Source: an uncultured Gammaproteobacteria bacterium (lineage in GTDB: Bacteria; Pseudomonadota; Gammaproteobacteria; CAWJOP01). Taken from it: a stretch of DNA of 64,000 nucleotides. The notes below the pieces were generated by a model. That model was not told the DNA's origin. It saw only the letters and a program-made list of their open reading frames with translations, and ran no database searches. Every line of letters begins with the position of its first letter. Positions within the stretch are counted from its first letter, which is position 1. The stretch lies in the NCBI GenBank assembly GCA_963844535.1, contig CAWJOP010000008.1, positions 196,801-260,800 on the forward strand, read 5' to 3'. Below are positions 4,701-49,058 of this stretch, piece after piece. Made by a program: the position numbers and the translations under genes.

Positions 4701-5665
4701 TCATCACGAATCTCCCCGCCTGAACCCGTCGCAGCACCTGGAAACGGCGCAATTGCAGTAGGATGATTATGCGTTTCCACTTTGATCAAGATATGAATAG
4801 GTTCTTCTTGGCTACGATAAATTAACTGTTTTGGATCATAAAAAAAACGTTCGCCATAAGAACCCGCTAAAATAGCGGCATTATCTTGATAAGCCGATAA
4901 AACTCCGTCAGGATTTTTTTGATAGGTGTTACGAATCATCGAAAACAAAGAATGTGGCGCTAAAACACCATCAATTGTCCAACGTGCATTAAAAATTTTA
5001 TGCCGACAATGCTCTGAATTTGCTTGTGCGAACATCATCAATTCAACATCGGTTGGATTTCTATCCAGCCCCTGATAAACCGTTAAGAAATATTTTATTT
5101 CAGCTTCATTCAGTGCAAGCCCTAACGATTCATTTGCTGCTTGCAATGCGCTTTCTCCTTTTCGCAATACATCAATCTCAGTGAGTGGGGCTGGCTCTTT
5201 GGTGGTAAACAATTGATATGCATTTTCAAACGAATAAAAAACCGTTTCTAACATACGGTCATGTAAAATTTCACTGGCTTTAAACAGCTCAGAACGACTC
5301 AATGAATCATGAGATATTTCTAAATAAAAACTAATTCCGCGTTCTAATCGCTTAACGGTGGAAAAGCCACATAAATGCGCAATATCAGTAGCTTTAGTTG
5401 ACCACGGCGAAACAGTACCTATGCGTGGCACTACTAAACATAGTTCTGCAGGATGAATAAATTGCCTGGGTGATAGTAATTTTTGATTCAGCAAATGTGT
5501 AAGCCGCGCTAAAGTATCTACTGATAATGGTTCAGTGCTCTCAACAAAATACTCATAAAAAGCTTGTATGCTGATAATCGAAGGAAAACTAGCTTTTAAT
5601 ATCGATAAATATTTTTCAAGTCGAAAATCCGATAAAGCAACATCGCCTGCCAGGTGTAATATCAT
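1751..5665 (-). CDS. purL: phosphoribosylformylglycinamidine (FGAM) synthase, single-chain large PurL
   Basis: 1304-aa ORF with an N-terminal PurS-like region, an AIR-synthase-related middle domain and a C-terminal glutamine amidotransferase (GVCNGCQMM). Length and motifs are typical of gammaproteobacterial PurL. Confidence 0.95.
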   Translation of the reverse strand: MILHLAGDVALSDFRLEKYLSILKASFPSIISIQAFYEYFVESTEPLSVDTLARLTHLLNQKLLSPRQFIHPAELCLVVPRIGTVSPWSTKATDIAHLCGFSTVKRLERGISFYLEISHDSLSRSELFKASEILHDRMLETVFYSFENAYQLFTTKEPAPLTEIDVLRKGESALQAANESLGLALNEAEIKYFLTVYQGLDRNPTDVELMMFAQANSEHCRHKIFNARWTIDGVLAPHSLFSMIRNTYQKNPDGVLSAYQDNAAILAGSYGERFFYDPKQLIYRSQEEPIHILIKVETHNHPTAIAPFPGAATGSGGEIRDEGATGRGAKPKAGLVGFSVSHLRIPGFIQPWETPLKKPAHIAASLEIMLTGPIGSASFNNEFGRPNICGYFRTFEYQNPNCAEVIRGYHKPIMLAGGIGNIRAMHTHKNQIAEGDYIIVLGGPALLIGLGGGAASSLDANNMRVDLDFASVQRANPEMQRRCQEVIDQCCALGEENPIVAIHDVGAGGLSNAIPELVHESERGAHIQLRAIPSDDPHLSPLEIWCNEAQERYVLAVNPKHLTLFETIAQRERCPFAVVGAATLEQKLLIEDSYFQNKPIDLPMSALFGKPPKLEIQAASTAYSYAPDLKTHEELTKFSIEKLNEIASRVLKFPAVASKSFLITIGDRTVGGLIARDPMVGPWQVPVADAGVTASGFTGYSGEAMAIGERTPLGIMNAAAAARMAVGEAITNIACANIHQLADVKLSANWMAAAKVSGEEIALFEAVKTVGLEICPDLKISIPVGKDSLSMQMQWNEGDVLQKVIAPVSPVISAFAKVVDIRKTLTPLLSREENTELWLIDLGQGKNRLGGSVLMQVYGYLGEECPDVDNPLRLQNFFSVIQLLNQQNLILAYHDRSDGGLWATLCEMAFASHIGIKINIPVTQNPIKFLFNEELGAVLQIRAENKTKVLAMIQEYNLENKFIPIATSTAKDDMVVIQEDKILLQQSRVELQKTWSETSFRMQALRDNPACAEEEFQTLSDVDDKGLYASLKFDPTEDISKPYINLARPQLAILREQGVNGQVEMAAAFTRAGFDCFDVHMSDLQNGRVTLDKFLGFVAVGGFSYGDVLGAGRGWANTILHDAKLFDAFSAFFNREHTFALGVCNGCQMMAQLKSLIPGADHWPQFVRNRSEQFEARFSMVEITPSPAVLFVDMVGSQLPVAIAHGEGRAEWLTAAEFSAAKAAHTIALRYIDHYGNQTEKYPANPNGSPLGTAGVTNQDGRFTILMPHPERVFRTVQWSWHPDSWGEDSPWMRMFRNLRVFVD

Positions 5666-5769: not shown

Positions 5770-7035
5770 TTATTGTATCACATCCGAAGCATGTTTTGCC
5801 GATGGTTTTATACACAAAATAGCAAAAAGCGCCAATAAAGCAGTAAAAATCAAATAAAAGCAGGGCGCAATCACCAACTGAGTTTCATAAATTAACGCCA
5901 TAGCAATTAACGGAGTTAACCCGCCAAATAAAGCAAAACCAAGATTGTAACTGACGGCTACACCACTGTAACGAATTCGGGTAGGAAATAATTCCGCTAA
6001 AAAACTAGGAATAACGCCAAAAGCAAAACCAACGAGTAACGCACTAAACAATAGTGCCAGTAACACATAATTAAAATACTGCGTATATATGAAGAAAATA
6101 GGATAGGCAAGCAAGATCGTTAATATACTTAAAATTATTAGCAACCATTTATGGCTAACTCTATCAGCAACTATGCCAAAAATAATATTTAGCAATCCTG
6201 ATGCAAATATTGCTAGCGTACTAAACCACACATATTGATGTGCTTCTATATGCAACACATTGCTTAAATATGCCGGGGCAAATAAAAACAATAGCGTAAT
6301 ACAAGAAGCGCCTAGCCCTACGACCAACATACCCCCTAATGCATTGGCCAATTTACTTTTTAAAACGACCATAAGCGGAAAAGATTCGGTTTTATTTTCT
6401 ATCGCTTTAAATAACGCAGATTCTTTTAATTGTCTCCTTAACTTATAACTAAAAAATCCAAATATTCCACCGATAAAAAATGGTATCCGCCAACCCCAAG
6501 CTAACAGTACTTGTTCAGAAAAAAAGCTAACTAGAATTGCATGCATCAGCGAACCCAATGTAATACCAAGCTGTAAAGAGAAAAAAATAACCCCGCAAGC
6601 AAACCCTCTTCTTTGCGGTATCGATTCACTTACATATGCAATTGCTCCAGGTATTTCTCCGCCAACAGATAACCCTTGAAATATGCGTAAAATAGTTAAA
6701 AGAATCGGGGCTAAAATACCAATACTTGCATAAGGCGGAACTAGCCCGATGCAGAAAGTGGCTGCTGCCATCATGAAAATTGATAAGGTAAAAGTTTTTT
6801 TTCTGCCAAATTTATCGCCGAAATGTCCAAATAAAACCCCACCTAAAGGTCTTACCAAGTAGCCAATGGAAAATGTTGCAAATGTGCTAAGTAATGCGGT
6901 GATATTACTGCTTTCTGGAAAAAATTCTTTAGCAATGTAGCTGGCTAATAAGGCGTAGATAATAAAGTCATAAAACTCTAATATCCCGCCTAAGCCAGAG
7001 AGTAGTAATAATTTTTTTTGTGAGTTATCAATCAT
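5770..7035 (-). CDS. MFS transporter, metabolite:H+ symporter (ProP/KgtP-like) family
   Basis: 421 aa with 12 predicted TM segments. It carries the MHS signature GHFGDKFGRKKTF and the second-half repeat GWRIPF. Confidence 0.8.
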   Translation of the reverse strand: MIDNSQKKLLLLSGLGGILEFYDFIIYALLASYIAKEFFPESSNITALLSTFATFSIGYLVRPLGGVLFGHFGDKFGRKKTFTLSIFMMAAATFCIGLVPPYASIGILAPILLTILRIFQGLSVGGEIPGAIAYVSESIPQRRGFACGVIFFSLQLGITLGSLMHAILVSFFSEQVLLAWGWRIPFFIGGIFGFFSYKLRRQLKESALFKAIENKTESFPLMVVLKSKLANALGGMLVVGLGASCITLLFLFAPAYLSNVLHIEAHQYVWFSTLAIFASGLLNIIFGIVADRVSHKWLLIILSILTILLAYPIFFIYTQYFNYVLLALLFSALLVGFAFGVIPSFLAELFPTRIRYSGVAVSYNLGFALFGGLTPLIAMALIYETQLVIAPCFYLIFTALLALFAILCIKPSAKHASDVIQ

Positions 7036-7043
7036 ATAACGAT

Positions 7044-7742
7044 CTACAAAGCCACAATATGCAAATGCTCATCTTCAAGATAAATTTGTGTACCCTTAGT
7101 CAATGCGGTTTTTTTTGCTTCCTCATTAACCCAATAATGTCCTGCAATTGAAACTAATTCTGCTTCTAGCGTTTGACAAAAAATTCTTGCCTGTTTATTA
7201 CCTTTTACTCCAGCTAATGCCCTGCCTCTTAGTGGTCCATAAATATGAATATGTCCATCAGCAATTAACTCAGCACCTGGGCTCACTGACGCTAACACAA
7301 TAAGATCTTTATTCTGCGCATAAATTTGTTGGCCTGAACGCACTGGTTGAGTAATCACCACCGCAAAATTCTCAACTGGAGGATCAAGTGATTTTACTTC
7401 ACTGCCATGTTCATCTTTTATTTTGGTAGAGCGATTTAAAATCGCCCAATTGGCTAATACGGCTTTTTTCTGTTGTGATTCACTGCCACCACAAATAGCC
7501 ACTGGAATAAAACCTTCCTTTCTTAAGATTTCATTTAACTTTACAAAATCCAACTGCTCAATGGTATGTACTTTTTGCAAATCAACCATGAGAGGAATAT
7601 GCTGAAAAAATCCTGGATTTTTCTGAATCAATGTATTTAATTGCTTGGCAAGACTATTAAGGTCATCCGATAAAAGCTGCAATACTGTCAAAGTAAAAAT
7701 GCTGCCTTTAAGCTGAAAAGCTACCTGATTTTTGGTTATCAT
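7044..7742 (-). CDS. minC: septum site-determining protein MinC
   Basis: 232 aa. The C-terminal domain [66 protein letters not shown] matches the MinC beta-helical dimerisation domain. No minD or minE lie downstream in this window. Confidence 0.85.
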
Positions 7743-9242
7743 TGTTTTGTCTCCTCTCCTTTTAGATCCTGTTTAGAATCTCGCCACACCAAATTAAGTT
7801 CTCTGGCTGCTTTAACATCATCGAGACGACGAACAGGTTGATGATAAGGCGCTTTTTTCAATTGGTCTGGATTAGTAGTAGCCTCTTTTAAAATTGCAAT
7901 CATTGCACAAGCAAATCCATCCAACGTTTGCTTCGATTCCGTTTCAGTTGGCTCAATTAATAAGCATTCTGGAACTAACAAAGGGAAATACATCGTCGGT
8001 GCATGAAATCCATAATCAAGTAAACGTTTGGCAACATCCATAGCCGTCACACCAAATTGTTTTGCTTCTTTACTTAAGGTAATAATAAATTCATGGCTTG
8101 CACGTCTTGCAGGAAAAGCGAGGGTAAATCCTGCTTTTTTGAGTCGAGCCATTAAATAATTTGCATTTAATGTTGCAAATTCTGCAACTCGTTTAAGGCC
8201 TTCTCGTCCTAACAAACGTGCATAAATATAAGCACGTAAAATAATTCCGGCATTCCCCATAAAAGTAGATAATCGTCCAATCGTTTGTGGACGATCTATC
8301 TTTATCAACCAACATAACTATCACCTTTTTTGCCTACAATCGGTGCGGGTAAAAAAGGCACTACACGTTCACTAACCGCCACTGGCCCGACCCTGGACCA
8401 CCACCACCATGCGGTGTAGCAAAAGTTTTATGTAAATTAATATGCATAACATCAAAACCCATATCACCTGGTCTTACTTTGCCTAAAATGGCATTAAGAT
8501 TTGCGCCATCGTAGTATAAGAGCCCACCCGCTTGATGCACTAATTGCGCAATTTCTTCAATATGCCTTTCAAATACGCCTAATGTCGATGGATTAGTTAA
8601 CATAATCCCCGCAGTTTTAGGGCCAACTGCTTTTTTAAGTTCTTCAAAATCCATATCACCATCAGCTTTCGTCGGAATTTCGCGAACTTTAAAACCACAC
8701 ATCACTGCTGATGCTGGATTAGTCCCATGCGCTGCATCTGGCACTAAAATTTCATCACGCTCATGATCACCACGCGCTAAATGATAAGCGCGAATCATTG
8801 CAACTCCAGCAAACTCACCTTGCGCTCCAGCCATTGGTGTTAACGAAACTCCCGCCATACCAGTGACTTCAATTAAAATTTCTTGCAAATCATAAACGCA
8901 AGCTAAAAATCCTTGACTGTGAATTTCTAGGGCTAATGGATGTCATTGTAAAAAACCTGGCATTGAAGCAATCCGATGCACCCCGCGAGGATTGTATTTC
9001 ATGGTGCAAGATCCCAGCGGATAAAAATGAGTATCAATCGAAAAATTCTTCTGTGACAATCTCGTGTAGTGCCTTACAACTTGTAATTCAGAAGTTTCAG
9101 GCAAAAGAGGTTTCGTACGTCTTAACAACGCCGCCGGTAAATCACTGCTATCACCCAAGGTTCCAAGCAACTGTGCACCAGCATTTCGGCCTTGTTGTGA
9201 ATATTCAAAAATGGTTTTATTTTCTAAATCGAGGATGGTCAT
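7739..9242 (-). pseudogene. gcvPB: glycine dehydrogenase (decarboxylating) subunit 2, GcvPB, disrupted by at least two 1-bp frameshifts
   Basis: Three consecutive minus-strand ORFs at 8943..9242, 8361..8888 and 7739..8308 together encode the N-terminal, middle and C-terminal parts of a ~485-aa GcvPB (FYPLGSCTMKYNP.., HGTNPASA.., [20 protein letters not shown].., [10 protein letters not shown].., [17 protein letters not shown]). One shift is a CC-for-CCC run at ~8370 that turns GSGP VAV into GSGQW. A second shift lies near 8306-8312, and another is between 8888 and 8943. Confidence 0.7.
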
Positions 9243-9279
9243 AGTTGTCTTCTTAATAAATATAAAATGACAGTTCTTT

Positions 9280-10662
9280 TTAAACTGATGCGCATGAGTT
9301 TTCGCTGATATAACAGCGCTTAACCGCCTCACAAAATACCTCTAAATCCCTTTCACTCTTTGTCTCAGTCGCACAAATCAATAAACATTCACCCAATTCT
9401 GGATAATGCACTGAAGTTGCATAACCTCCTTCGATACCAAGACGAGATAATGCTAATAATATATCAGCCGCTTTTTTCTCCGTACGAACTAAAATCTCAT
9501 GAAAATAAAGGCGATTAAATACCGGTAAAATTCCCGGAATTTTCGTAATCTTATTGAACAGTTTTCGGGTATTTTCATGGCAATTTATTGCAACTTGCCG
9601 TAATCCTTCTGCGCCCATTAAACTCAGGTAAATCGTAACTGCAGTAACTAACAACCCTTGATTAGTACAAATATTAGAAGTCGCTTTAGCACGTCGAATA
9701 TGTTGTTCACGCGCTTGCAAGGTTAAAGCAAATCCTGGTTTGCCATCTAAATCTACTGTTTTGCCCACAATACGCCCCGGCATTTGTCTGACATAGGCTT
9801 CTTTACAACACATAAAACCTACATATGGCCCACCTGAAGCTAATGGCACACCTAAAGGCTGCGCTTCACCGCAAACAATATCTGCACCGGTTTCTCCCCA
9901 TTTACCCGGCTCTTTAAATAACGCCAAAGCAAGCGGGTTAACCACTGCAATCACTAAAGCACCTTTGCGATGTGCCCAATCTGTTAATTGATCCACTTCT
10001 TCTAAAATTCCAAAAAAATTAGGCTGCGGAATAATCAATGCAGCAATATCTGTATCGCCTAATGCATTTAATGATTCAAGCGGTGTATTCCCTTCTGTAA
10101 AAGAATAAGGCAAATCAACCAATTCAATTTGCTGCGGCGTAACAATAGTGGAAATCACTTCACGATAGTAAGGATGTAACGTTTTTGGCACTAATATACG
10201 TCGAGATTTCGTTTGACGATTAGCACGAACTGCCATGAAAACCGCTTCTGCCAAAGCAGATGCACCATCATACATCGAGGCATTAGAAACATCCATGCCG
10301 GTTAAACTTGCCATCATGGTTTGATATTCATACAAAAGCTGCAAAGTTCCTTGACTTGCTTCTGCCTGATAAGGCGTATATGCAGTCATATATTCGCCTC
10401 GGCCGACAATATCCCAAACTGCTGCTGGAATATAATGTTCATATGCGCCTGCACCAATAAAACATAATGATGAAACGTCCTGTTCGGCATATTCACGCAT
10501 CAGTTTAACTACTGCTAATTCAGACAAGCCTTCCGGAATTTTAGTGGATAATTCTTTACGTAGATTTTTAGGAATTTCATCAAATAAGCTTTCAATTGAA
10601 GGGCTATCAATTTCTGCTAACATTTGTTGAACATCATTTGCTGTATGTGGAATAAATGGCAT
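9280..10662 (-). CDS. gcvPA: glycine dehydrogenase (decarboxylating) subunit 1, GcvPA
   Basis: 460 aa with typical GcvPA motifs ([27 protein letters not shown]). It sits between gcvH and gcvPB. Confidence 0.9.
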
Positions 10663-10680: not shown

Positions 10681-11067
10681 TTAGCTTGACCCAATATGTT
10701 CCTCATAAATTTTTGCATCCAGCAAATCGTTTAAGCTTGAGTCACTGACTTTAAGCTTAAATAACCAACCTTCTCCATAAGGACTGCTGTTGATCAATTG
10801 TGGTTCATCATTTAGCTTTTCATTAATCGCTACCACTTCGCCTGACAACGGACTATAAACATCGGCAGCAGCTTTAACTGATTCAACCACACTGATCTCT
10901 ACACCTGCTTCTGTAGCACGATGAATTTCTGGCAATTCGACATAAACAATATCGCCTAACAAATGCTGCGCATGATCCGTAATACCAATGGTATAAGTGC
11001 CATCCGCTTCTTGCCGCACCCACTCATGAGTACGCGTATATTTCAGTTCAGTTGGAATGTTATTCAT
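10681..11067 (-). CDS. gcvH: glycine cleavage system H protein (lipoyl carrier)
   Basis: 128 aa with the lipoyl-lysine region [18 protein letters not shown]. Its start overlaps the gcvT stop by 4 bp. Confidence 0.9.
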
Positions 11068-22126: not shown

Positions 22127-22149
22127 TTAGCGCTCAAGGATCTTAGGGC

Positions 22150-22262
22150 CTGTTGACAATTTATCTCAAACCCTACGTTCCCGCGGCTTGTCCGCGGGAT
22201 CTATGGAGCAGGATCCATGGATCCCGCGAACAAGTCGTGGCAGCGGCACGTCGCAGGGTGTG
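22150..22262. repeat. family A REP-like palindromic element (long form)
   Basis: TTGACAATTTATCTCAAACCCTACGTTCCCGCGGCTTGTCCGCGGGATCTATGG..GGATCCATGGATCCCGCGAACAAGTCGTGGCAGCGGCACGTCG. It lies upstream of the divergent hydrolase and DUF2282 genes. Confidence 0.55.
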
Positions 22263-22335
22263 AATAGTTACAATAAATTTTTATTCTACATCAATTGGTA
22301 GTGATATACTGCTCGCAATTAAAAAAGGAACTTTT

Positions 22336-22632
22336 ATGCTCAAAAAAAATCAAATACTTCAATCAGCTATTGCTGGCGTTCTTGCTTTAACTTCAGTAAA
22401 TCAAGCCAATGCGCACAACGCTGTAACTTCACCAGAAATGGAAAAATGTTATGGCATTGTCAAAGCAGGAATGAATGATTGCCAAACCTCCAGTCAAAGC
22501 TGTGCGGGCTCTGCCATTAAAGATAAACAGTCTGACGCTTTTATTTTTTTACCTAAAGGAACTTGTCATAAAATCGTTGGTGGAAGTTTGCAACCGCCAG
22601 TAGTACAAAATGATGATAAAAATAAAAAATAA
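22336..22632 (+). CDS. DUF2282 (BufA1-type) Cys-containing RiPP precursor with a signal peptide (bufferin-like)
   Basis: 98 aa with a Sec signal peptide. The core EKCYGIVKAGMNDCQTSSQSCAGSAIKDKQSDAFIFLPKGTCHKIVGG has the four Cys spacing and the EKCYG..AG.NDC..SCAG...GTC motif of DUF2282 precursors, which MNIO (DUF692) enzymes modify. Confidence 0.75.
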   Translation: MLKKNQILQSAIAGVLALTSVNQANAHNAVTSPEMEKCYGIVKAGMNDCQTSSQSCAGSAIKDKQSDAFIFLPKGTCHKIVGGSLQPPVVQNDDKNKK

Positions 22633-23475
22633 TGCCACTGGTATTGGTCTTCGCGCCACACACTATCATGAAATCATAAGCAATCAGCCTAAAATTACTT
22701 GGCTTGAAGTACATAGTGAAAATTATTTTGGCAAAGGCGGAAAACCGCTCAATTATCTAACTCAAATCCACCAACACTACCCGCTCAGCTTTCATGGGGT
22801 AGGACTATCACTAGGATTCTACTGATCCACTCAATTTGCTTCATCTTAAACAACTGAAAAAACTGATAGATCAATTCAATCCTATTTTTATTTCTGAGCA
22901 TTTATGCTGGTCGTCAATTGACGGACGCTATCTGCATGATTTATTACCATTACCTTATACTGAAGAAGCTTTAAATTTATGTATTGATAAAATCAATCAA
23001 ATTCAAGATTTTTTGAATCGTAAAATTTTAATTGAAAATATTTCGAGTTATTTGCAATTTACTGATAACACCATGCCAGAATATGAATTTATCAACAAAA
23101 TTGTTGCGCAAACTGGCTGCGGGATATTATTAGATCTCACTAATCTTTACATTAATAGTGTTAATCATCATTGGGAACGTTGCACTTTATTTACAGCATA
23201 TTCCAACACACACTATAGATGAAATTCATCTGGCTGGATTTACCACAAATCATTTTGCAAATGGTTTCATGTTGATTGATACTCATGATCAAGCGATTGA
23301 TGCAAATGTGTGGAAATTGTATACGCAAGTTATCAGTAAATTTGGGCCAAAACCTACGCTTATTGAATGGGATAAGAATATCCCCAAATTATCCACGCTT
23401 TTAGCCGAAGCCGAAAAAGCTAATGGTATTTTATTAAACAATAATCTCGCCAAACATGACTATATCCTTACGTAA
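22613..23475 (+). pseudogene. DUF692/MNIO (MbnB/BufB-like TIM-barrel oxidase) gene interrupted by two frameshifts
   Basis: Three overlapping ORFs at 22610..22825, 22836..23222 and 23158..23475 together reconstitute one DUF692 protein (GIGLRATHYHEI.., WLEVHSENYF.., HGVGLSLG | STDPLNLLHLKQLK..SEHLCW.., LLPLPYTEEAL.., ILIENISSY.., GCGILLDLTNLYINSVNHHW | ALYLQHIP.., IDEIHLAGF.., LIDTHDQ.., PTLIEWD). One shift is an extra T at ~22818 and the other a 1-bp loss at ~23185. Confidence 0.65.
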
Positions 23476-24289
23476 ATTACAACTTGCTTTTAGACATGCC
23501 ATATTGGGCGATAAAAAAATTTCATTAAGTTCGCATATCGAGCAAAATGGTCTTACCTCTAAACAAAGGATACAAATTTACCAAAATAATGTTTTCTTCA
23601 CTTTAACTGCGGCACTAAAAAGCATTTATCCTACTATTCATCAAATACTGGCAGAACCATCTTTCTTAGCTATTGCACATCATTACATCGTTCGTTATCC
23701 ATCGAACTTCGGCGACATCAGCTCTTTTGGCATGCACTTTGGAAAGTTTCTGGCTAATTCCTTAGCAACAAAATCTTTTCCCTATTTAAAAGAAATAGCT
23801 AATTTAGAATGGGCTTACCATGAAGTATTTCACGAAGAAGAAGTTGAATACTTCGAACTAAATAAGCTAAAAACAGTCTCAGCCGAAAAATATTCACAGA
23901 TAAAATTTAACCTAAATCCTGCTTGCCGCTTACTTTCCTGCAAATACCCTATTTTATCGATTTGGCAATATTATCAGCAGCAAAAAACGTCGCCGTTTTC
24001 GCCGTCATTGCAAGCACATCATTGCGAGGAGCACTTGCGCCCCGTGGCAAATGATGCGTGTGGCAATCCAACGCCACAGAGGGAAAAAATACTAATTATC
24101 CGGCGATCATCAGACATTACATTTGAAAAATTAACCGAAGGTGAATTTGCTTTATTGTCTGCTTTTAGCAAAGGATTGGCTTTCAAACAATCACATACAC
24201 TTGCATTAAAATCAGATATGACATTTAATATTGAAGCCTATTTAAAACAAGCTGTTTTACAAAAAATTATTGTGGATTTTTACTTTTAA
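23456..24289 (+). CDS. DUF2063-family protein (MbnC/BufC-like partner of MNIO)
   Basis: 277 aa. It sits 3' of and overlaps the MNIO gene, as in DUF692-DUF2063 pairs. The N-terminal region (QLAFRHAILGD.., IYQNNVFFTLTAALKSIYPTIHQILAEPSF..) is consistent with DUF2063. It contains a segment encoded by a degenerate family C repeat. Confidence 0.6.
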   Translation: MTISLRKLQLAFRHAILGDKKISLSSHIEQNGLTSKQRIQIYQNNVFFTLTAALKSIYPTIHQILAEPSFLAIAHHYIVRYPSNFGDISSFGMHFGKFLANSLATKSFPYLKEIANLEWAYHEVFHEEEVEYFELNKLKTVSAEKYSQIKFNLNPACRLLSCKYPILSIWQYYQQQKTSPFSPSLQAHHCEEHLRPVANDACGNPTPQREKILIIRRSSDITFEKLTEGEFALLSAFSKGLAFKQSHTLALKSDMTFNIEAYLKQAVLQKIIVDFYF

Positions 24290-26035: not shown

Positions 26036-26150
26036 AGTCCCCTTCCCGTGAGGCCGTCATTGCGAGCACCTGTAGGGTGCGAAGCAATCCAGAAATTATA
26101 AATATTTTTACTGGATTGCCACGCGCTTCGCGCTCGCAATGACGGTCTTA
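26036..26150. repeat. family C palindromic element (GTCATTGCGAG...GCAATCCAG...CTCGCAATGAC)
   Basis: ..CCCTTCCCGTGAGGCCGTCATTGCGAGC..GAAGCAATCCAG..CTGGATTGCCACGCGCTTCGCGCTCGCAATGACGG... It has both outer and inner inverted repeats and is a near-copy of the element at 35258..35410. Confidence 0.55.
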
Positions 26151-26271
26151 CGAAGTAGAAACTAAGCTTTTACATTTCTATTTCAAGCAATTAAAAATTT
26201 TTCCTATCTAAATATTTTTTTGACTCTTCAAAAAAATGTGATACCTTGTTCGCTTTTTTCCTAGGGCCTGT

Positions 26272-26455: not shown

Positions 26456-29014
26456 ATGCTTCATAATTTTAATTATTTAAAAAACAATTGTTCGCTTTTT
26501 TTAATAGCCTTATCTTTTTTAGGCTTATTTTCTCAAGCTGCATTTGCCACCACTTATCAATGGAATGTAGTTTCAGGTGATTGGGAAACAGAATCTAATT
26601 GGCTTCCTATGACTCCCCCGGGGCCACCTACCAGCGCAGATACTGCAGAGATTGATAACGGTGGAACTGCTATAGTATTCGCTGGGGATAATTCTTTAGC
26701 ATCAACCGTCAATTTGGGTGTCAACACTACTTCAAATATATTAAATATCGATGCAGGTGGTACGCTCAACATTACTAACAACCTTAACATAGCAAGTACT
26801 GCTACTTCTTCTGGTGCATTAACTCTTATGGGCCAGTTGTTTGTTAATCAAATTCAAGCGGGTATGGGCACTGCGGTTATTAACTTTAACGGCGGAACCT
26901 TACAAGCTGGAACTACTTCTGCATCGAACCTGATCGTAGGCGGATTTGCTTCCAGTAACTTAAACATCGAAAGCGGTGGACTCACCATTGATGACCAGGG
27001 CAATAACATCACTGAAAACCCTTCAGATATGTTTGGATTTAGTGGTCAAGGTAGCTTTACTAAAACGGGCACCGGTGTTGTGACCTTCAACGACCTCACC
27101 AATAATTATCAAGGTGATACGACGGTTGCCGAAGGTACGTTAACCATCAGCGGCGGTACCTTAGGCACCGTGAATGGCAATATCCAATTAGCGACCCTAA
27201 GTAATGCCACCTTAAATATTAATAACGGTGCTGCAGTCACTGCGAATACCGTCACTTTAGGTGACCCAGCTGGAACCCTTAATCTCGGTGGTGGCCCTGG
27301 CTCTCCAGGTACTTTGAGTACCAATCAGTTGATTGCAGGCAATAGCGGAAGTGTGGCTAACTTTAATAATGGCACATTAATCGCACTTTCCAGCAATGCT
27401 AACTTCATCACTGGGTTTAGCAGCGGTAATTTGGTCACCAATAGTCCAGATGGTGTGATTATCGATAGCAATGGCTTTAATATTGGGGTTGCGGATAGTG
27501 GATTTACGGGTAATGGAGGTCTTACAAAAACCGGCGCGGGTACGCTGACATTAAGTGGTACGAATACCTACTCAGGTACTACGACGATTGATGAAGGCAT
27601 CATACAGGCAGGGGCTGCTAATACCCTTAGCCCATTTTCCAATCATGTGGTTGATGCTAATACTGAGCTTAATCTTGCTGGTTTCCCACAAACGATTGCT
27701 GGGTTAACGAATAACGGGTTAGTCTCCTTAGCAGGTACTACGGCTGGAAATCAACTCACGGTGACTGGGAATTTAGGTTCTGGTAACGGCACTTTTGCAT
27801 TCTTAACCAATTTAGGTGCATTAGTGGGTGATCATATGAGCGTCGGAGGAACCAGCGCAGGCAGTTACCTAGTTCAAGTCACCAACCAAGGTAACAATCC
27901 AACGACTCCAGGTCAGTCCTTAGAACTTATTTCTACTACGGACGGTGTGGCTCAATTTGCGTTACAAGGTGGACAAGTTGATGCAGGTATTTTGGTATAT
28001 ACCTTACAAGAAGGCTTAGGCGTACCGGGTACTGAAGACAACTGGTATCTTGTGAATAGTGGCTTAACGCCTACGGGTAAGAACATCGTTGCAACCGCGT
28101 TGACTCCATCGATTTGGGCGACCCAGTTTGATGATGTGTACAAACGTATGGGTGAGTTACGTCAAGGAATCTGCCGATGCTGTGATGGTTGTGCACGCTA
28201 TGGACAAATCAAAAATAATGTATGGGTCCGTAATTACGATGAGCGTATCAACGTTAATAGCGATGTTGCTGGCGATCCGTTCCATGTTTACTTATACGGT
28301 GCTGACGTGGGTATAGACAAAGGCTTTACCACAGCCTGTGGCAATCAAGTGTTTGCTGGTGCGTTCTTAGGATACGGAAGAAGTAGTCCTATCTTCTCAT
28401 CATCATCAGGCAGTATAGATACCAATGCACCTTATGCGGGTGTTTACGGTACTTGGTTGAATCAATGTGGTTGGTATGTAGATGGCGTTGTTAAAGCACA
28501 ACGTTTTTACAATAAATTCAATACATTGACTACATCCGGCAGCAATCTAGATGACACAACCTATAACCAGTGGAGTGTAGGCGCGTCTGCTCAGGCAGGT
28601 AAACGCTTCTGTGCAAAAAATGGCTTCTTTGTTGAACCACAAGCGCAAATTACCTATACACACTTTAATGGAGCAAACTATATAGCTGATGATATTTTCC
28701 CAGTAAGTGTTGGCAACACGGAAATAACTCAAGCTAGAGGCATGTTAATGGTCGGTCGTACATTTAACCAATGTGGAAAATTCTTTGAACCTTACGTAAA
28801 ATTCGGAGAAGCTACACAAAATAGCCATGGTACTAATGTTGATGTTGCCGGAATGCACTTTCGTCCTAACTTAGACGGGGCACGAACTGAAGTAGGTGCA
28901 GGGTTTGCTTATGGATGCAACCACGTACAGTTCCATGCTGATTACAAAGCGGTTAACGGCCCAGATTACAATATTCCATGGGCAATTAACGTAGGCTTCC
29001 GATATATCATGTAA
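26456..29014 (+). CDS. classical (type Va) autotransporter with passenger-associated beta-strand (PATR) repeats and a C-terminal beta-barrel
   Basis: 852 aa with a signal peptide. The Gly/Thr/Asn-rich passenger has repeated TGxGTLTLSG.NTYSGxTTI units (autotransporter-associated beta-strand repeats). The C-terminal ~280 aa have alternating aromatic/hydrophobic residues and end in ..NVGFRYIM. Confidence 0.85.
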   Translation: MLHNFNYLKNNCSLFLIALSFLGLFSQAAFATTYQWNVVSGDWETESNWLPMTPPGPPTSADTAEIDNGGTAIVFAGDNSLASTVNLGVNTTSNILNIDAGGTLNITNNLNIASTATSSGALTLMGQLFVNQIQAGMGTAVINFNGGTLQAGTTSASNLIVGGFASSNLNIESGGLTIDDQGNNITENPSDMFGFSGQGSFTKTGTGVVTFNDLTNNYQGDTTVAEGTLTISGGTLGTVNGNIQLATLSNATLNINNGAAVTANTVTLGDPAGTLNLGGGPGSPGTLSTNQLIAGNSGSVANFNNGTLIALSSNANFITGFSSGNLVTNSPDGVIIDSNGFNIGVADSGFTGNGGLTKTGAGTLTLSGTNTYSGTTTIDEGIIQAGAANTLSPFSNHVVDANTELNLAGFPQTIAGLTNNGLVSLAGTTAGNQLTVTGNLGSGNGTFAFLTNLGALVGDHMSVGGTSAGSYLVQVTNQGNNPTTPGQSLELISTTDGVAQFALQGGQVDAGILVYTLQEGLGVPGTEDNWYLVNSGLTPTGKNIVATALTPSIWATQFDDVYKRMGELRQGICRCCDGCARYGQIKNNVWVRNYDERINVNSDVAGDPFHVYLYGADVGIDKGFTTACGNQVFAGAFLGYGRSSPIFSSSSGSIDTNAPYAGVYGTWLNQCGWYVDGVVKAQRFYNKFNTLTTSGSNLDDTTYNQWSVGASAQAGKRFCAKNGFFVEPQAQITYTHFNGANYIADDIFPVSVGNTEITQARGMLMVGRTFNQCGKFFEPYVKFGEATQNSHGTNVDVAGMHFRPNLDGARTEVGAGFAYGCNHVQFHADYKAVNGPDYNIPWAINVGFRYIM

Positions 29015-35257: not shown

Positions 35258-35410
35258 AAGCTTAGTCTCTCCCGTGAGGCCGTCATTGCGAGGCTTGAGT
35301 TTTTTGCAAGCCGAAGCAATCCAGCAAAGAAATTTAAGCATTTTTACTGGATTGCCGCGCGCATCCTGCGCTCGCAATGACGGCCTCACGGGAGAGGCTG
35401 AGCTTTTACA
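35258..35410. repeat. family C palindromic element, most complete copy (~150 bp, ~33-bp terminal inverted repeats)
   Basis: GCTTAGTCTCTCCCGTGAGGCCGTCATTGCGAGG..GCCGAAGCAATCCAGC..GCTGGATTGCCGCGCGCATCCTGCGCTCGCAATGACGGCCTCACGGGAGAGGCTGAGC. It sits between the methyltransferase stop and the EamA gene start. The internal ORFs at 35147..35389 and 35238..35459 are artefacts of the palindrome. Confidence 0.6.
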
Positions 35411-36778: not shown

Positions 36779-37201
36779 CTATTCCACTCGTTGATAATAA
36801 TCAGCACCAGTTATATTCGCATCCCAGTTTTTATGCGCGGGATCTTTTGCCTGCATCGCATCTAACCAAAGTGTTGCAAGCTCATCACGATTTGCGCTCA
36901 AATGACCAGTCATCGCAACTACTTGCTTGCAGTGTGGAAAATTAACTGTTATTGCAATGGCATTCCCATTAAAAAAACCACTGATAGGCATTGGCACATT
37001 CACATCAGCCTTGCAATTACCAACGGCCGTGGTAAATGTACCACTTAATGTCCCTGTTTCTTTGGTTTCCGCATGCCAAATTAGTGTTAGCACCGAACCG
37101 CGTTGATTTTTATAAGTAACTGTTTGCTCTGCAGCAGCAAAAGCACAGTGACTCACAAAAAATATGGCAAAAACTAGGAAAATCTTTTTGGTTGTATTCA
37201 T
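36779..37201 (-). CDS. secreted avidin/streptavidin-family protein
   Basis: There is an ATG at 37199-37201 with an AAGGAGA RBS and a signal peptide (MNTTKKIFLVFAIFFVSHCAFAAA). The mature part matches the avidin fold (YKNQRGSVLTL.., GTLSGTFTTAVGN vs streptavidin GALTGTYESAVGN; ..VVAMTGHL.., LATLWLD). The track ORF is 5'-extended to 37258. Confidence 0.55.
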   Translation of the reverse strand: MNTTKKIFLVFAIFFVSHCAFAAAEQTVTYKNQRGSVLTLIWHAETKETGTLSGTFTTAVGNCKADVNVPMPISGFFNGNAIAITVNFPHCKQVVAMTGHLSANRDELATLWLDAMQAKDPAHKNWDANITGADYYQRVE

Positions 37202-37298
37202 AGATATATCTCCTTTATATAAAAAATCGATTCTGTCATTTTTTTCTACATTAATCACTAGGAAAACTCCTAGGTTTTTATAGCAGTTTTCATAATAA

Positions 37299-41242: not shown

Positions 41243-41611
41243 CTAAACCCTGACTGTCAAATGCACAGGATATTTAGCTAAAGTAGCTAATAATCTTTCT
41301 CCAGACTCTATTGAAGTACACACTGGTTTTTCTACTAAGATTGTCTTGCTGGCAATGGCAGACAATATAATCTGCTCTGCATGTAAGTTATCTGGGGTAG
41401 CAATAATAACTGCATGTAAATCAGGATCATCAAGCATTTCATGAAGATCAATGTAGACTTTTGCATTTGCCTGATATTTTTTAGAAAATGCTTCAGTGCT
41501 ATCTAGTGTTCTTCCGCAGACGCTCCACAATTGTGCATTAGAAATAGCTTTAAGCGCATTAGCATGAATTTCTCCAGCACGACCTATCCCTATAATGCCA
41601 ATATTTAGCAT
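41243..41611 (-). pseudogene. Gfo/Idh/MocA oxidoreductase, N-terminal NAD-binding domain only (truncated remnant)
   Basis: 122 aa (MLNIGIIGIGRAGEIHANAL.., TPDNLHAEQIILSAIASKTILVEKP). The C-terminal catalytic domain is missing, and the downstream ~140 bp is non-coding. Confidence 0.5.
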
Positions 41612-49010: not shown

Positions 49011-49058
49011 CTCCGCTGCCTACGTGCCGCTGCCACGACTTGTTTGCGGCATCTACAG
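49011..49058. repeat. family A REP-like half element
   Basis: CTCCGCTGCCTACGTGCCGCTGCCACGACTTGTTTGCGGCATCTACAG is the reverse-complement match to the right half of the 22150 element. Confidence 0.45.

Follow-up and report, generated by a model that had tools for sequence, protein, structure and literature searches.

The window (the whole stretch of DNA analysed here, 64,000 nucleotides) contains a glycine cleavage operon in which gcvPB cannot be read as a single open frame, and this raises the question of whether the break exists in the organism or only in its assembled sequence. The original prediction was that a core operon is undergoing pseudogenisation as part of reductive evolution or, failing that, that homopolymer sequencing errors mimic such decay. 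The comparison with close relatives described below points instead to a chimeric consensus, probably of computational origin, that extends over gcvPA and gcvPB.

Structure of the gcv operon and of the breaks in gcvPB

The genes gcvT, gcvH, gcvPA and gcvPB are arranged head to tail, all on the minus strand, with minC coming next (Table 1). This is the operon context of GcvPB, and the same gene order is found in the homologous contigs L085, L087, L090 and L091. As had been noted earlier, gcvT, gcvH and gcvPA are all open, gcvT including a 127-bp palindromic insertion that lies in frame; gcvPA, however, cannot be called intact without qualification, since one of its nine private substitutions replaces Leu142 with Phe at a position occupied by Leu in 119 of 119 homologues.

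Table 1. Coordinates of the gcv genes, of the lesions in gcvPB and of codons that combine the bases of close strains and distant homologues
Feature	Coordinates	Strand	State
gcvT	12269..11064	minus	intact, 401 aa; identical to the ERR10755945 strain
gcvH	11067..10681	minus	intact; identical to the ERR10755945 strain
gcvPA	10662..9280	minus	open, 460 aa; 9 private substitutions (7 synonymous, 2 not)
gcvPB (glycine dehydrogenase subunit 2)	9242..7739	minus	disrupted; three pieces that jointly cover the whole NF003346 profile
minC	7742..7044	minus	directly downstream of gcvPB; identical to the ERR10755945 strain; clean flank
Tract with all 45 private substitutions and all 4 gcvPB indels	10393..7967	minus	in gcvPA and gcvPB
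In-frame TGA, gcvPB codon 100	8945-8943	minus	Arg (AGA/AGG) in close strains; AGA in L001
A lost, gcvPB	between 8389 and 8388	minus	TCAGGG in relatives, TCGGG in the window; frame 1 to frame 0
Three-indel cluster, gcvPB	8296..8312	minus	two deletions and one insertion relative to L001
G lost, gcvPB	between 8312 and 8311	minus	relative to L001
C lost, gcvPB	between 8309 and 8308	minus	relative to L001
G gained, gcvPB	8296	minus	GATAATC to GATAGATC, relative to L001
Chimeric codon, gcvPA 142	10239-10237		close strains CTC (Leu), distant TTG (Leu), window TTC (Phe)
Chimeric codon, gcvPA 323			close strains AGA, distant CGC, window CGA
Chimeric codon, gcvPA 325			close strains TCT, distant GCA, window GCT
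Chimeric codon, gcvPB 116			close strains CTT, distant GCT, window GTT
gcvPB 317			close strains AAT, homologue consensus GAT, window A+GAT (both alleles, G inserted)

The reported division of gcvPB into three ORFs was confirmed. In a profile search the pieces matched positions 7-102, 105-291 and 316-487 of NF003346, in this order and with scores of 103.5, 336.4 and 229.8 bits, none of which alone reaches the curated cut-off; a single full-length GcvPB polypeptide scoring above that cut-off (441 bits) was not found in the window. The middle piece contains the motif NLHKTF, which we take to be the putative PLP-binding lysine site recognised from P-protein structures, and the translation, once repaired, shares 95% identity with P0001, an intact orthologue of 501 aa. 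The gene thus resembles the GcvPB family (NF003346, PF02347/PF00266/PF21478) in profile coverage, operon context, motif and repaired identity, and differs from it in having one stop and four indels in place of a single ORF.

Single-base shifts had been held responsible for the whole division. They do account for the second break, which consists of four single-base events (three deletions and one insertion of 1 bp each, net change -2), with frame changes in the three-frame translation near 8388 (1 to 0) and near 8310 (0 to 2), but the break at 8888-8945 is an in-frame TGA, both sides of which are read in one frame. The proposed correction of GGCCAG to GGCCCAG at about 8370 would restore the frame, although intact relatives place the lost base elsewhere, and the corrected ORF, expected at 480-490 aa, measures 501 aa in the intact relative. 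The first base of codon 100, which creates the stop, is T in the window, A in close strains and C in six of six other homologues. The G inserted at 8296 converts AAT into A+GAT, GAT being the consensus of the homologues there.

Private changes relative to close strains

Comparison with the gcvPB of close relatives had been proposed as a check, and it showed the gene to be intact in all three related strains: in L001, a 6.1-kb contig of run ERR10755945 that carries P0001, and in L085 (JGI 3300009787) and L086 (SRR6256964), which are about 97% identical to the window at the DNA level and were used as outgroup. All the gcvPB lesions are absent from these strains and are therefore private to the window assembly. 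Together with two further contigs of run ERR10755945, L084 (gcvT-gcvH and the start of gcvPA) and L088 (the bufferin/MNIO locus), the comparison with that strain spans 13.7 kb. A scan of JGI metagenomes for further alleles returned only the contig L085 and no window-type allele, and a scan of genome contigs for more strains returned nothing beyond one Legionellales MAG at 70%. Between natural strains, gcvPB shows 16 nucleotide differences in synonymous codons versus 4 in amino-acid-changing codons, and the gene is under purifying selection among them.

The private substitutions comprise nine in gcvPA and 36 in gcvPB (12 synonymous, 24 non-synonymous), all of them confined, together with the four indels, to a single tract (Table 1). 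From 13118 to 10394 the window and the ERR10755945 strain show zero differences, and from 7966 to 4242 they differ by one SNP, which is synonymous and located at 6118; outside the tract as a whole, one SNP and two insertions were found in 11.3 kb. Over the 13.7 kb, 6 of 7 private indels and 45 of 46 private substitutions fall in the gcvP and MNIO loci, a clustering beyond chance.

When the comparison is rooted with L085/L086, each of the tract differences falls on the window, which leaves the branch of ERR10755945 with length zero. Scattered between the private sites are 30 others that separate the window and ERR10755945 from the 97% strains; at all 30 of these the window carries the ERR-type state, and at two positions inside a mutated block, 9069 and 9062, the state common to the window and ERR10755945 is the derived one. 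The zero-length branch and these two shared derived states indicate that the tract of the window descends from a sequence of the ERR type, and no molecular clock gives 19 synonymous changes on the window branch against none on the ERR10755945 branch. Import of the whole tract from one divergent strain is ruled out by the same evidence (branch of length zero, ERR-type states at 30 of 30 sites, two of them derived), and a mosaic origin of the ERR10755945 contig is ruled out by the interleaving of the two classes of sites. When L082 and L083 (80% nucleotide identity) were used for polarisation, 8-10 synonymous changes seemed to be derived in the relative; L085/L086 assigned all of them to the window, and the misleading result is itself a symptom of the window matching distant homologues.

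Correspondence of the private changes with distant homologues

At the DNA level, 44 of the 45 private substitutions introduce a base present in at least one homologue, the stop-creating T of codon 100 being the sole exception. The distant homologues L087, L090 and L091, with 62-70% nucleotide identity, each match 37-38 of the 45 private bases where about 10% would be expected (P ~2e-31); by gene, each of them matches 29-30 of the 36 sites in gcvPB and 8-9 of the 9 in gcvPA. As for the proteins, 17 of the 19 changed residues are now the majority residue of 119 homologues (frequencies of 56-92%), and the ERR-type residues at the changed positions are kept mostly by the twelve nearest relatives (P0002-P0013).

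Of the differences that separate it from any distant homologue, the window adopted no more than about 7%, and converted sites have unconverted donor differences 1-6 nt away, to the point that single codons combine bases of both kinds (Table 1). At each of the four indels and at the TGA, one or more of the distant homologues deviate from the ERR type. Adoption followed the agreement among four distant homologues, being 17% where all four agree, 10.5% where three do and 2.4% where two do, and where the ERR type already has the base commonest among the homologues it was about 0.1%. Local conservation was higher at the adopted sites than at the others (0.73 versus 0.64, p ~1e-4). Under permissive scoring, all private sites lie within three blocks that can be aligned with distant homologues (10464-10214, 10034-9589 and 9112-7937). 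The block sequences of the window were found in no lineage of the database, and contiguous donor blocks with all donor differences transferred, which a recombination mosaic would contain, were not found.

Origin of the altered tract

The lesions of gcvPB are private to one assembly, they belong to a pattern of templated single-nucleotide changes, and this pattern is confined to alignable blocks. We consider it probable that they result from a computational chimera over gcvPA-gcvPB, a cause that we infer from the pattern itself. The sequence proper to the organism would be the intact one seen in run ERR10755945, in which consensus building or polishing may have replaced the bases at about 45 scattered sites by those usual in distant gcvP homologues. 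These could have come from foreign reads, or from homologous genomes, whose alignment is limited to the three blocks of the operon that are best conserved. Where the two sources conflicted, the consensus would at times have dropped a base, kept both or called a third one, and the TGA and the four indels could be the outcome of such calls. It is most likely that both GcvPB, at 501 aa, and the glycine cleavage system work in the organism, to judge from the gene of its near-identical relative.

A per-site choice between two sources, restricted to alignable stretches, points to a consensus or polishing step, since mutation and recombination behave otherwise. Such a mixture is seen in the chimeric codons, in the higher local conservation of the adopted sites and in the blocks, and an independent, near-identical assembly (L001, L084 and L088 of ERR10755945) lacks the changes. 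Chimeras produced by consensus or polishing likewise show per-site moves towards the base conserved in homologues, confinement to alignable conserved stretches and small indels where the evidence conflicts; the window is unlike them in having adopted a minority of the unanimous homologue columns. Among the points that tell against a computational chimera, the stop-creating T is explained by no homologue and, if the assembly were a pure short-read de Bruijn assembly without polishing, chimeric k-mers would be required in real molecules.

With regard to the procedure, a rule by which the unanimous or majority base of the homologues is adopted was ruled out, as it over-predicts conversions. Only 17% of the columns with four of four homologues in agreement were adopted, and the gcvT and gcvH blocks also align with distant homologues, yet they are untouched, so that a simple majority rule fails to reproduce the pattern. 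Cross-mapping of short reads from L087-like taxa is unlikely, because four proxy homologues have few exact 19-mers in common with the locus and do not align to it under strict short-read scoring. Homopolish, the one polisher of homologue-based design that was considered, was ruled out as the specific tool: by default it takes genomes with at least 95% Mash identity and uses minimap2 asm5 (PMC8011154), and homologues at 70% are too distant to be recruited.

It could also be that the allele is real, although we consider this unlikely: a divergent gcvP would have templated many very short conversions and inactivated gcvPB in one strain, the donor being perhaps a second genomic copy or DNA acquired from bacteria living alongside. 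The clear templating of the changes, and their confinement to blocks able to pair with distant homologues, are consistent with this possibility; so is the stop-creating base, whose lack of a match among homologues would be expected of a genuine mutation, and the public record holds the same sequence, P0243 (GcvPA) and P0246 (a 173-aa fragment of GcvPB) being translations of the window. A real allele would require, however, some 20 or more separate patches of 1-10 nt within 2.4 kb, the 11.3 kb of flanks having none, with differences 2 nt apart that were not co-converted and with a donor only 62-70% identical to the recipient. Such identity is far below the tolerance of RecA-type exchange, and we know of no recombination route that would give about 20 micro-conversions from a donor of this kind in one strain. 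Moreover, recombination produces neither indels at differences that consist only of a substitution nor AGAT with both alleles, the window contains no second gcvP copy, and the window-type allele was absent from the one JGI metagenome scan.

The penA/pbp mosaics of Neisseria and Streptococcus, in which donors of about 80-95% identity contribute uninterrupted stretches some tens to hundreds of bases long, resemble the window in having donor-like bases in a recipient backbone at regions of higher similarity, and differ from it in the size of the patches, in the much closer donor class and in that the codons of the window are chimeric. It appears improbable as well that very short templated events, independent of RecA and drawing on a gcvP homologue at 62-70%, occurred in a burst, with indels at the junctions and the loss of gcvPB as its outcome; highly fragmented DNA of foreign origin incorporated at a replication fork, or a long mismatched heteroduplex repaired in patches, are possible routes for such a burst.

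Ordinary decay in situ of a pseudogene, in the course of the reductive evolution of a host-restricted lineage, has very little probability compared with a chimeric consensus. It would account for several disabling lesions within one gene, for 24 non-synonymous versus 12 synonymous changes in gcvPB, which is near the neutral expectation, and for the existence of further damaged genes in the window. Nevertheless, 45 changes in 2.4 kb beside one in 11.3 kb, and a divergence of 2-3% next to flanks that have practically none, are impossible under neutrality; the 36 substitutions in the 1.5 kb of gcvPB already exceed what decay allows, that is, a divergence not above the synonymous divergence of the neighbours. 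Decay would also distribute substitutions at random relative to the states of the homologues, and it leaves unexplained the 44 of 45 changes that match homologue bases, the 17 residues (of 19) that moved to the family majority, and the seven synonymous versus two non-synonymous changes of gcvPA at one-third of the density. Pseudogenes of reductive evolution, known from Mycobacterium leprae and from Coxiella-like and other Legionellales symbionts, have in common with gcvPB that a metabolic gene next to intact ones carries several lesions that disable it; in the window, unlike in those cases, the lesions occur in no relative, the substitutions are templated and the flanks have no matching neutral divergence. 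The view of a core operon in ongoing pseudogenisation was thus not upheld, the lesions being missing both from the near-identical strain and from those at about 97%.

Plain sequencing error, in the form of homopolymer miscounts or of random read errors, seems scarcely tenable either. The lesions are private to a single assembly, as errors would be, and both lesions of the MNIO gene (see below) are expansions from one to two bases. The shifts in gcvPB had also been placed in homopolymer runs, but the four indel contexts (TCAGGG, GTGTGG, GGCTTG and GATAATC) all lie outside homopolymers. Inside gcvPB, ten runs reach at least 5 nt, with the lengths found in the intact relative, and the 446 runs of at least 5 nt in 46.9 kb of intact window ORFs contain no frameshift, so that the alternative of homopolymer error fails. 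Random errors, for their part, would be neither templated by homologues nor confined to two genes, and one of the gcvPB lesions is a substitution. The suspicion that the shifts are not real was therefore probably right in spirit, though not as to the cause. Finally, the idea that gcvPB is expressed in spite of its lesions by recoding, through an amino acid inserted at the TGA together with programmed frameshifts, has nothing in its favour except that coding potential is conserved in the three pieces and can be practically discarded, since TGA is an ordinary stop that ends 10 of 42 intact window ORFs, gcvPB itself included, and the TGA of codon 100 corresponds to Arg, not to Cys/Sec or Trp, in the relatives, while four separate indels with a net change of -2 would require several independent shifts.

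Implications for the assembly record

If the allele were real, it would represent an unusual process, templated mutagenesis at the scale of single nucleotides between homologues that have diverged widely, in a natural case affecting one conserved operon. If a chimeric consensus is the cause, the glycine cleavage system of the organism is still complete, and metabolic reconstructions and arguments for reductive evolution that are drawn from this assembly would be wrong here, as they probably would at the MNIO/bufferin locus. The gcvP locus serves as a quality warning for a public assembly. The signature of such an artefact is easily screened for, as it consists of private, consensus-ward, single-nucleotide changes in alignable conserved blocks, with indels where the sources disagree. 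The same signature may touch other highly conserved genes of the record, such as rRNA, rpoB, tuf and groEL, which are markers for phylogeny.

Other damaged genes in the window

The frameshifted MNIO gene (PF05114) had been cited in support of reductive evolution. The gene is indeed split, by 1-bp insertions at 22817 and 23176, but both insertions are private to the assembly: the 4.8 kb around them are otherwise identical to contig L088 of ERR10755945, with no substitution, and in that contig the gene is intact and encodes 286 aa. Further remnants in the window are a Gfo/Idh/MocA ORF that has only the N-domain and an integrase-core remnant. The case for reductive evolution from the window is weak, given that the MNIO lesions are private, that gcvPB is under purifying selection between natural strains and that the window contains about 42 intact ORFs, including those for proteins of 1304, 852, 778, 714 and 678 aa.

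Alteration of gcvPA and a palindrome within gcvT

Codon 142 of gcvPA (window 10237-10239) reads TTC and thus encodes Phe, while Leu is found in 119 of the 119 homologues, which indicates that the gcvPA of the assembly, taken as intact in the original prediction, is altered too. Beyond the gcvP tract (gcvPA and gcvPB), the only substitution found in 11.3 kb with respect to the near-identical ERR10755945 strain is located at position 6118, in an MFS transporter gene, and it is synonymous (ACA to ACG).

The C-terminal part of gcvT carries a near-perfect palindrome of 127 bp that is in frame and adds ca. 38 residues, rendering a protein of 401 aa versus ca. 363. Its G+C content is 51%, versus 37% for the window, and the computed folding energy of the hairpin is -82 kcal/mol. 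The palindrome is common to the window and the ERR10755945 strain, and is absent from the gcvT genes of L085 (a contig of a strain at ca. 97% DNA identity) and L087 (a distant homologous locus). In its place, the L085 gene bears another in-frame insertion of ca. 21 aa, TVAEIFGCYEPCNLVTFNNLTG, which differs from the palindrome; this insertion adjoins another part of gcvT, where the sequence is locally divergent. The palindrome is similar to the in-frame palindromic elements of Rickettsia.

Other disrupted genes, accessory genes and repeats

The MNIO gene (MbnB/TglH/ChrH family) lies between a bufA-like precursor gene and a DUF2063 gene in a bufferin-like operon, and is disrupted by two 1-bp insertions, at 22817 (T to TT) and 23176 (A to AA). 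Neither insertion is present in the corresponding ERR10755945 contig, which is otherwise identical to the window. The Gfo/Idh/MocA ORF lacks its C-terminal domain, since the next gene, map, is found 146 bp downstream. Decay of mobile or accessory genes may account both for the integrase-core-like remnant and for a second stretch, in which three fragments of ORFs lie in separate frames.

Three further ORFs matched F-box (a weak match, E 3.6e-4), avidin-family and pertactin-type autotransporter proteins, accessory genes of kinds that are frequent in amoeba-associated Legionellales. Two sets of short dispersed intergenic repeats were also detected, and the four stretches of the first set are G+C-rich and contain inverted repeats.

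Features of the window and of L085
Feature	Position	Strand	Remarks
gcvT palindrome	11146-11272	minus
L085 gcvT insertion	L085 about 8912-9052
bufA-like precursor	about 22336-22632
MNIO gene	about 22613-23475	plus	split
DUF2063 gene	23456-24289
Gfo/Idh/MocA ORF	41243-41611	minus	122 aa; NAD-binding N-domain only
Integrase-core-like remnant and second stretch	57435-57898 and 54406-55207		remnant (listed first) in two frames, ...YNYERPHQALN...
F-box match	55555-57282
Avidin-family match	36779-37258
Pertactin-type autotransporter match	26456-29014
Repeat set 1	22140-22290, 18494-18624, 49022-49053, 15771-15801		mutual matches
Repeat set 2	35259-35390, 26041-26158		match L085 intergenic 4801-4936
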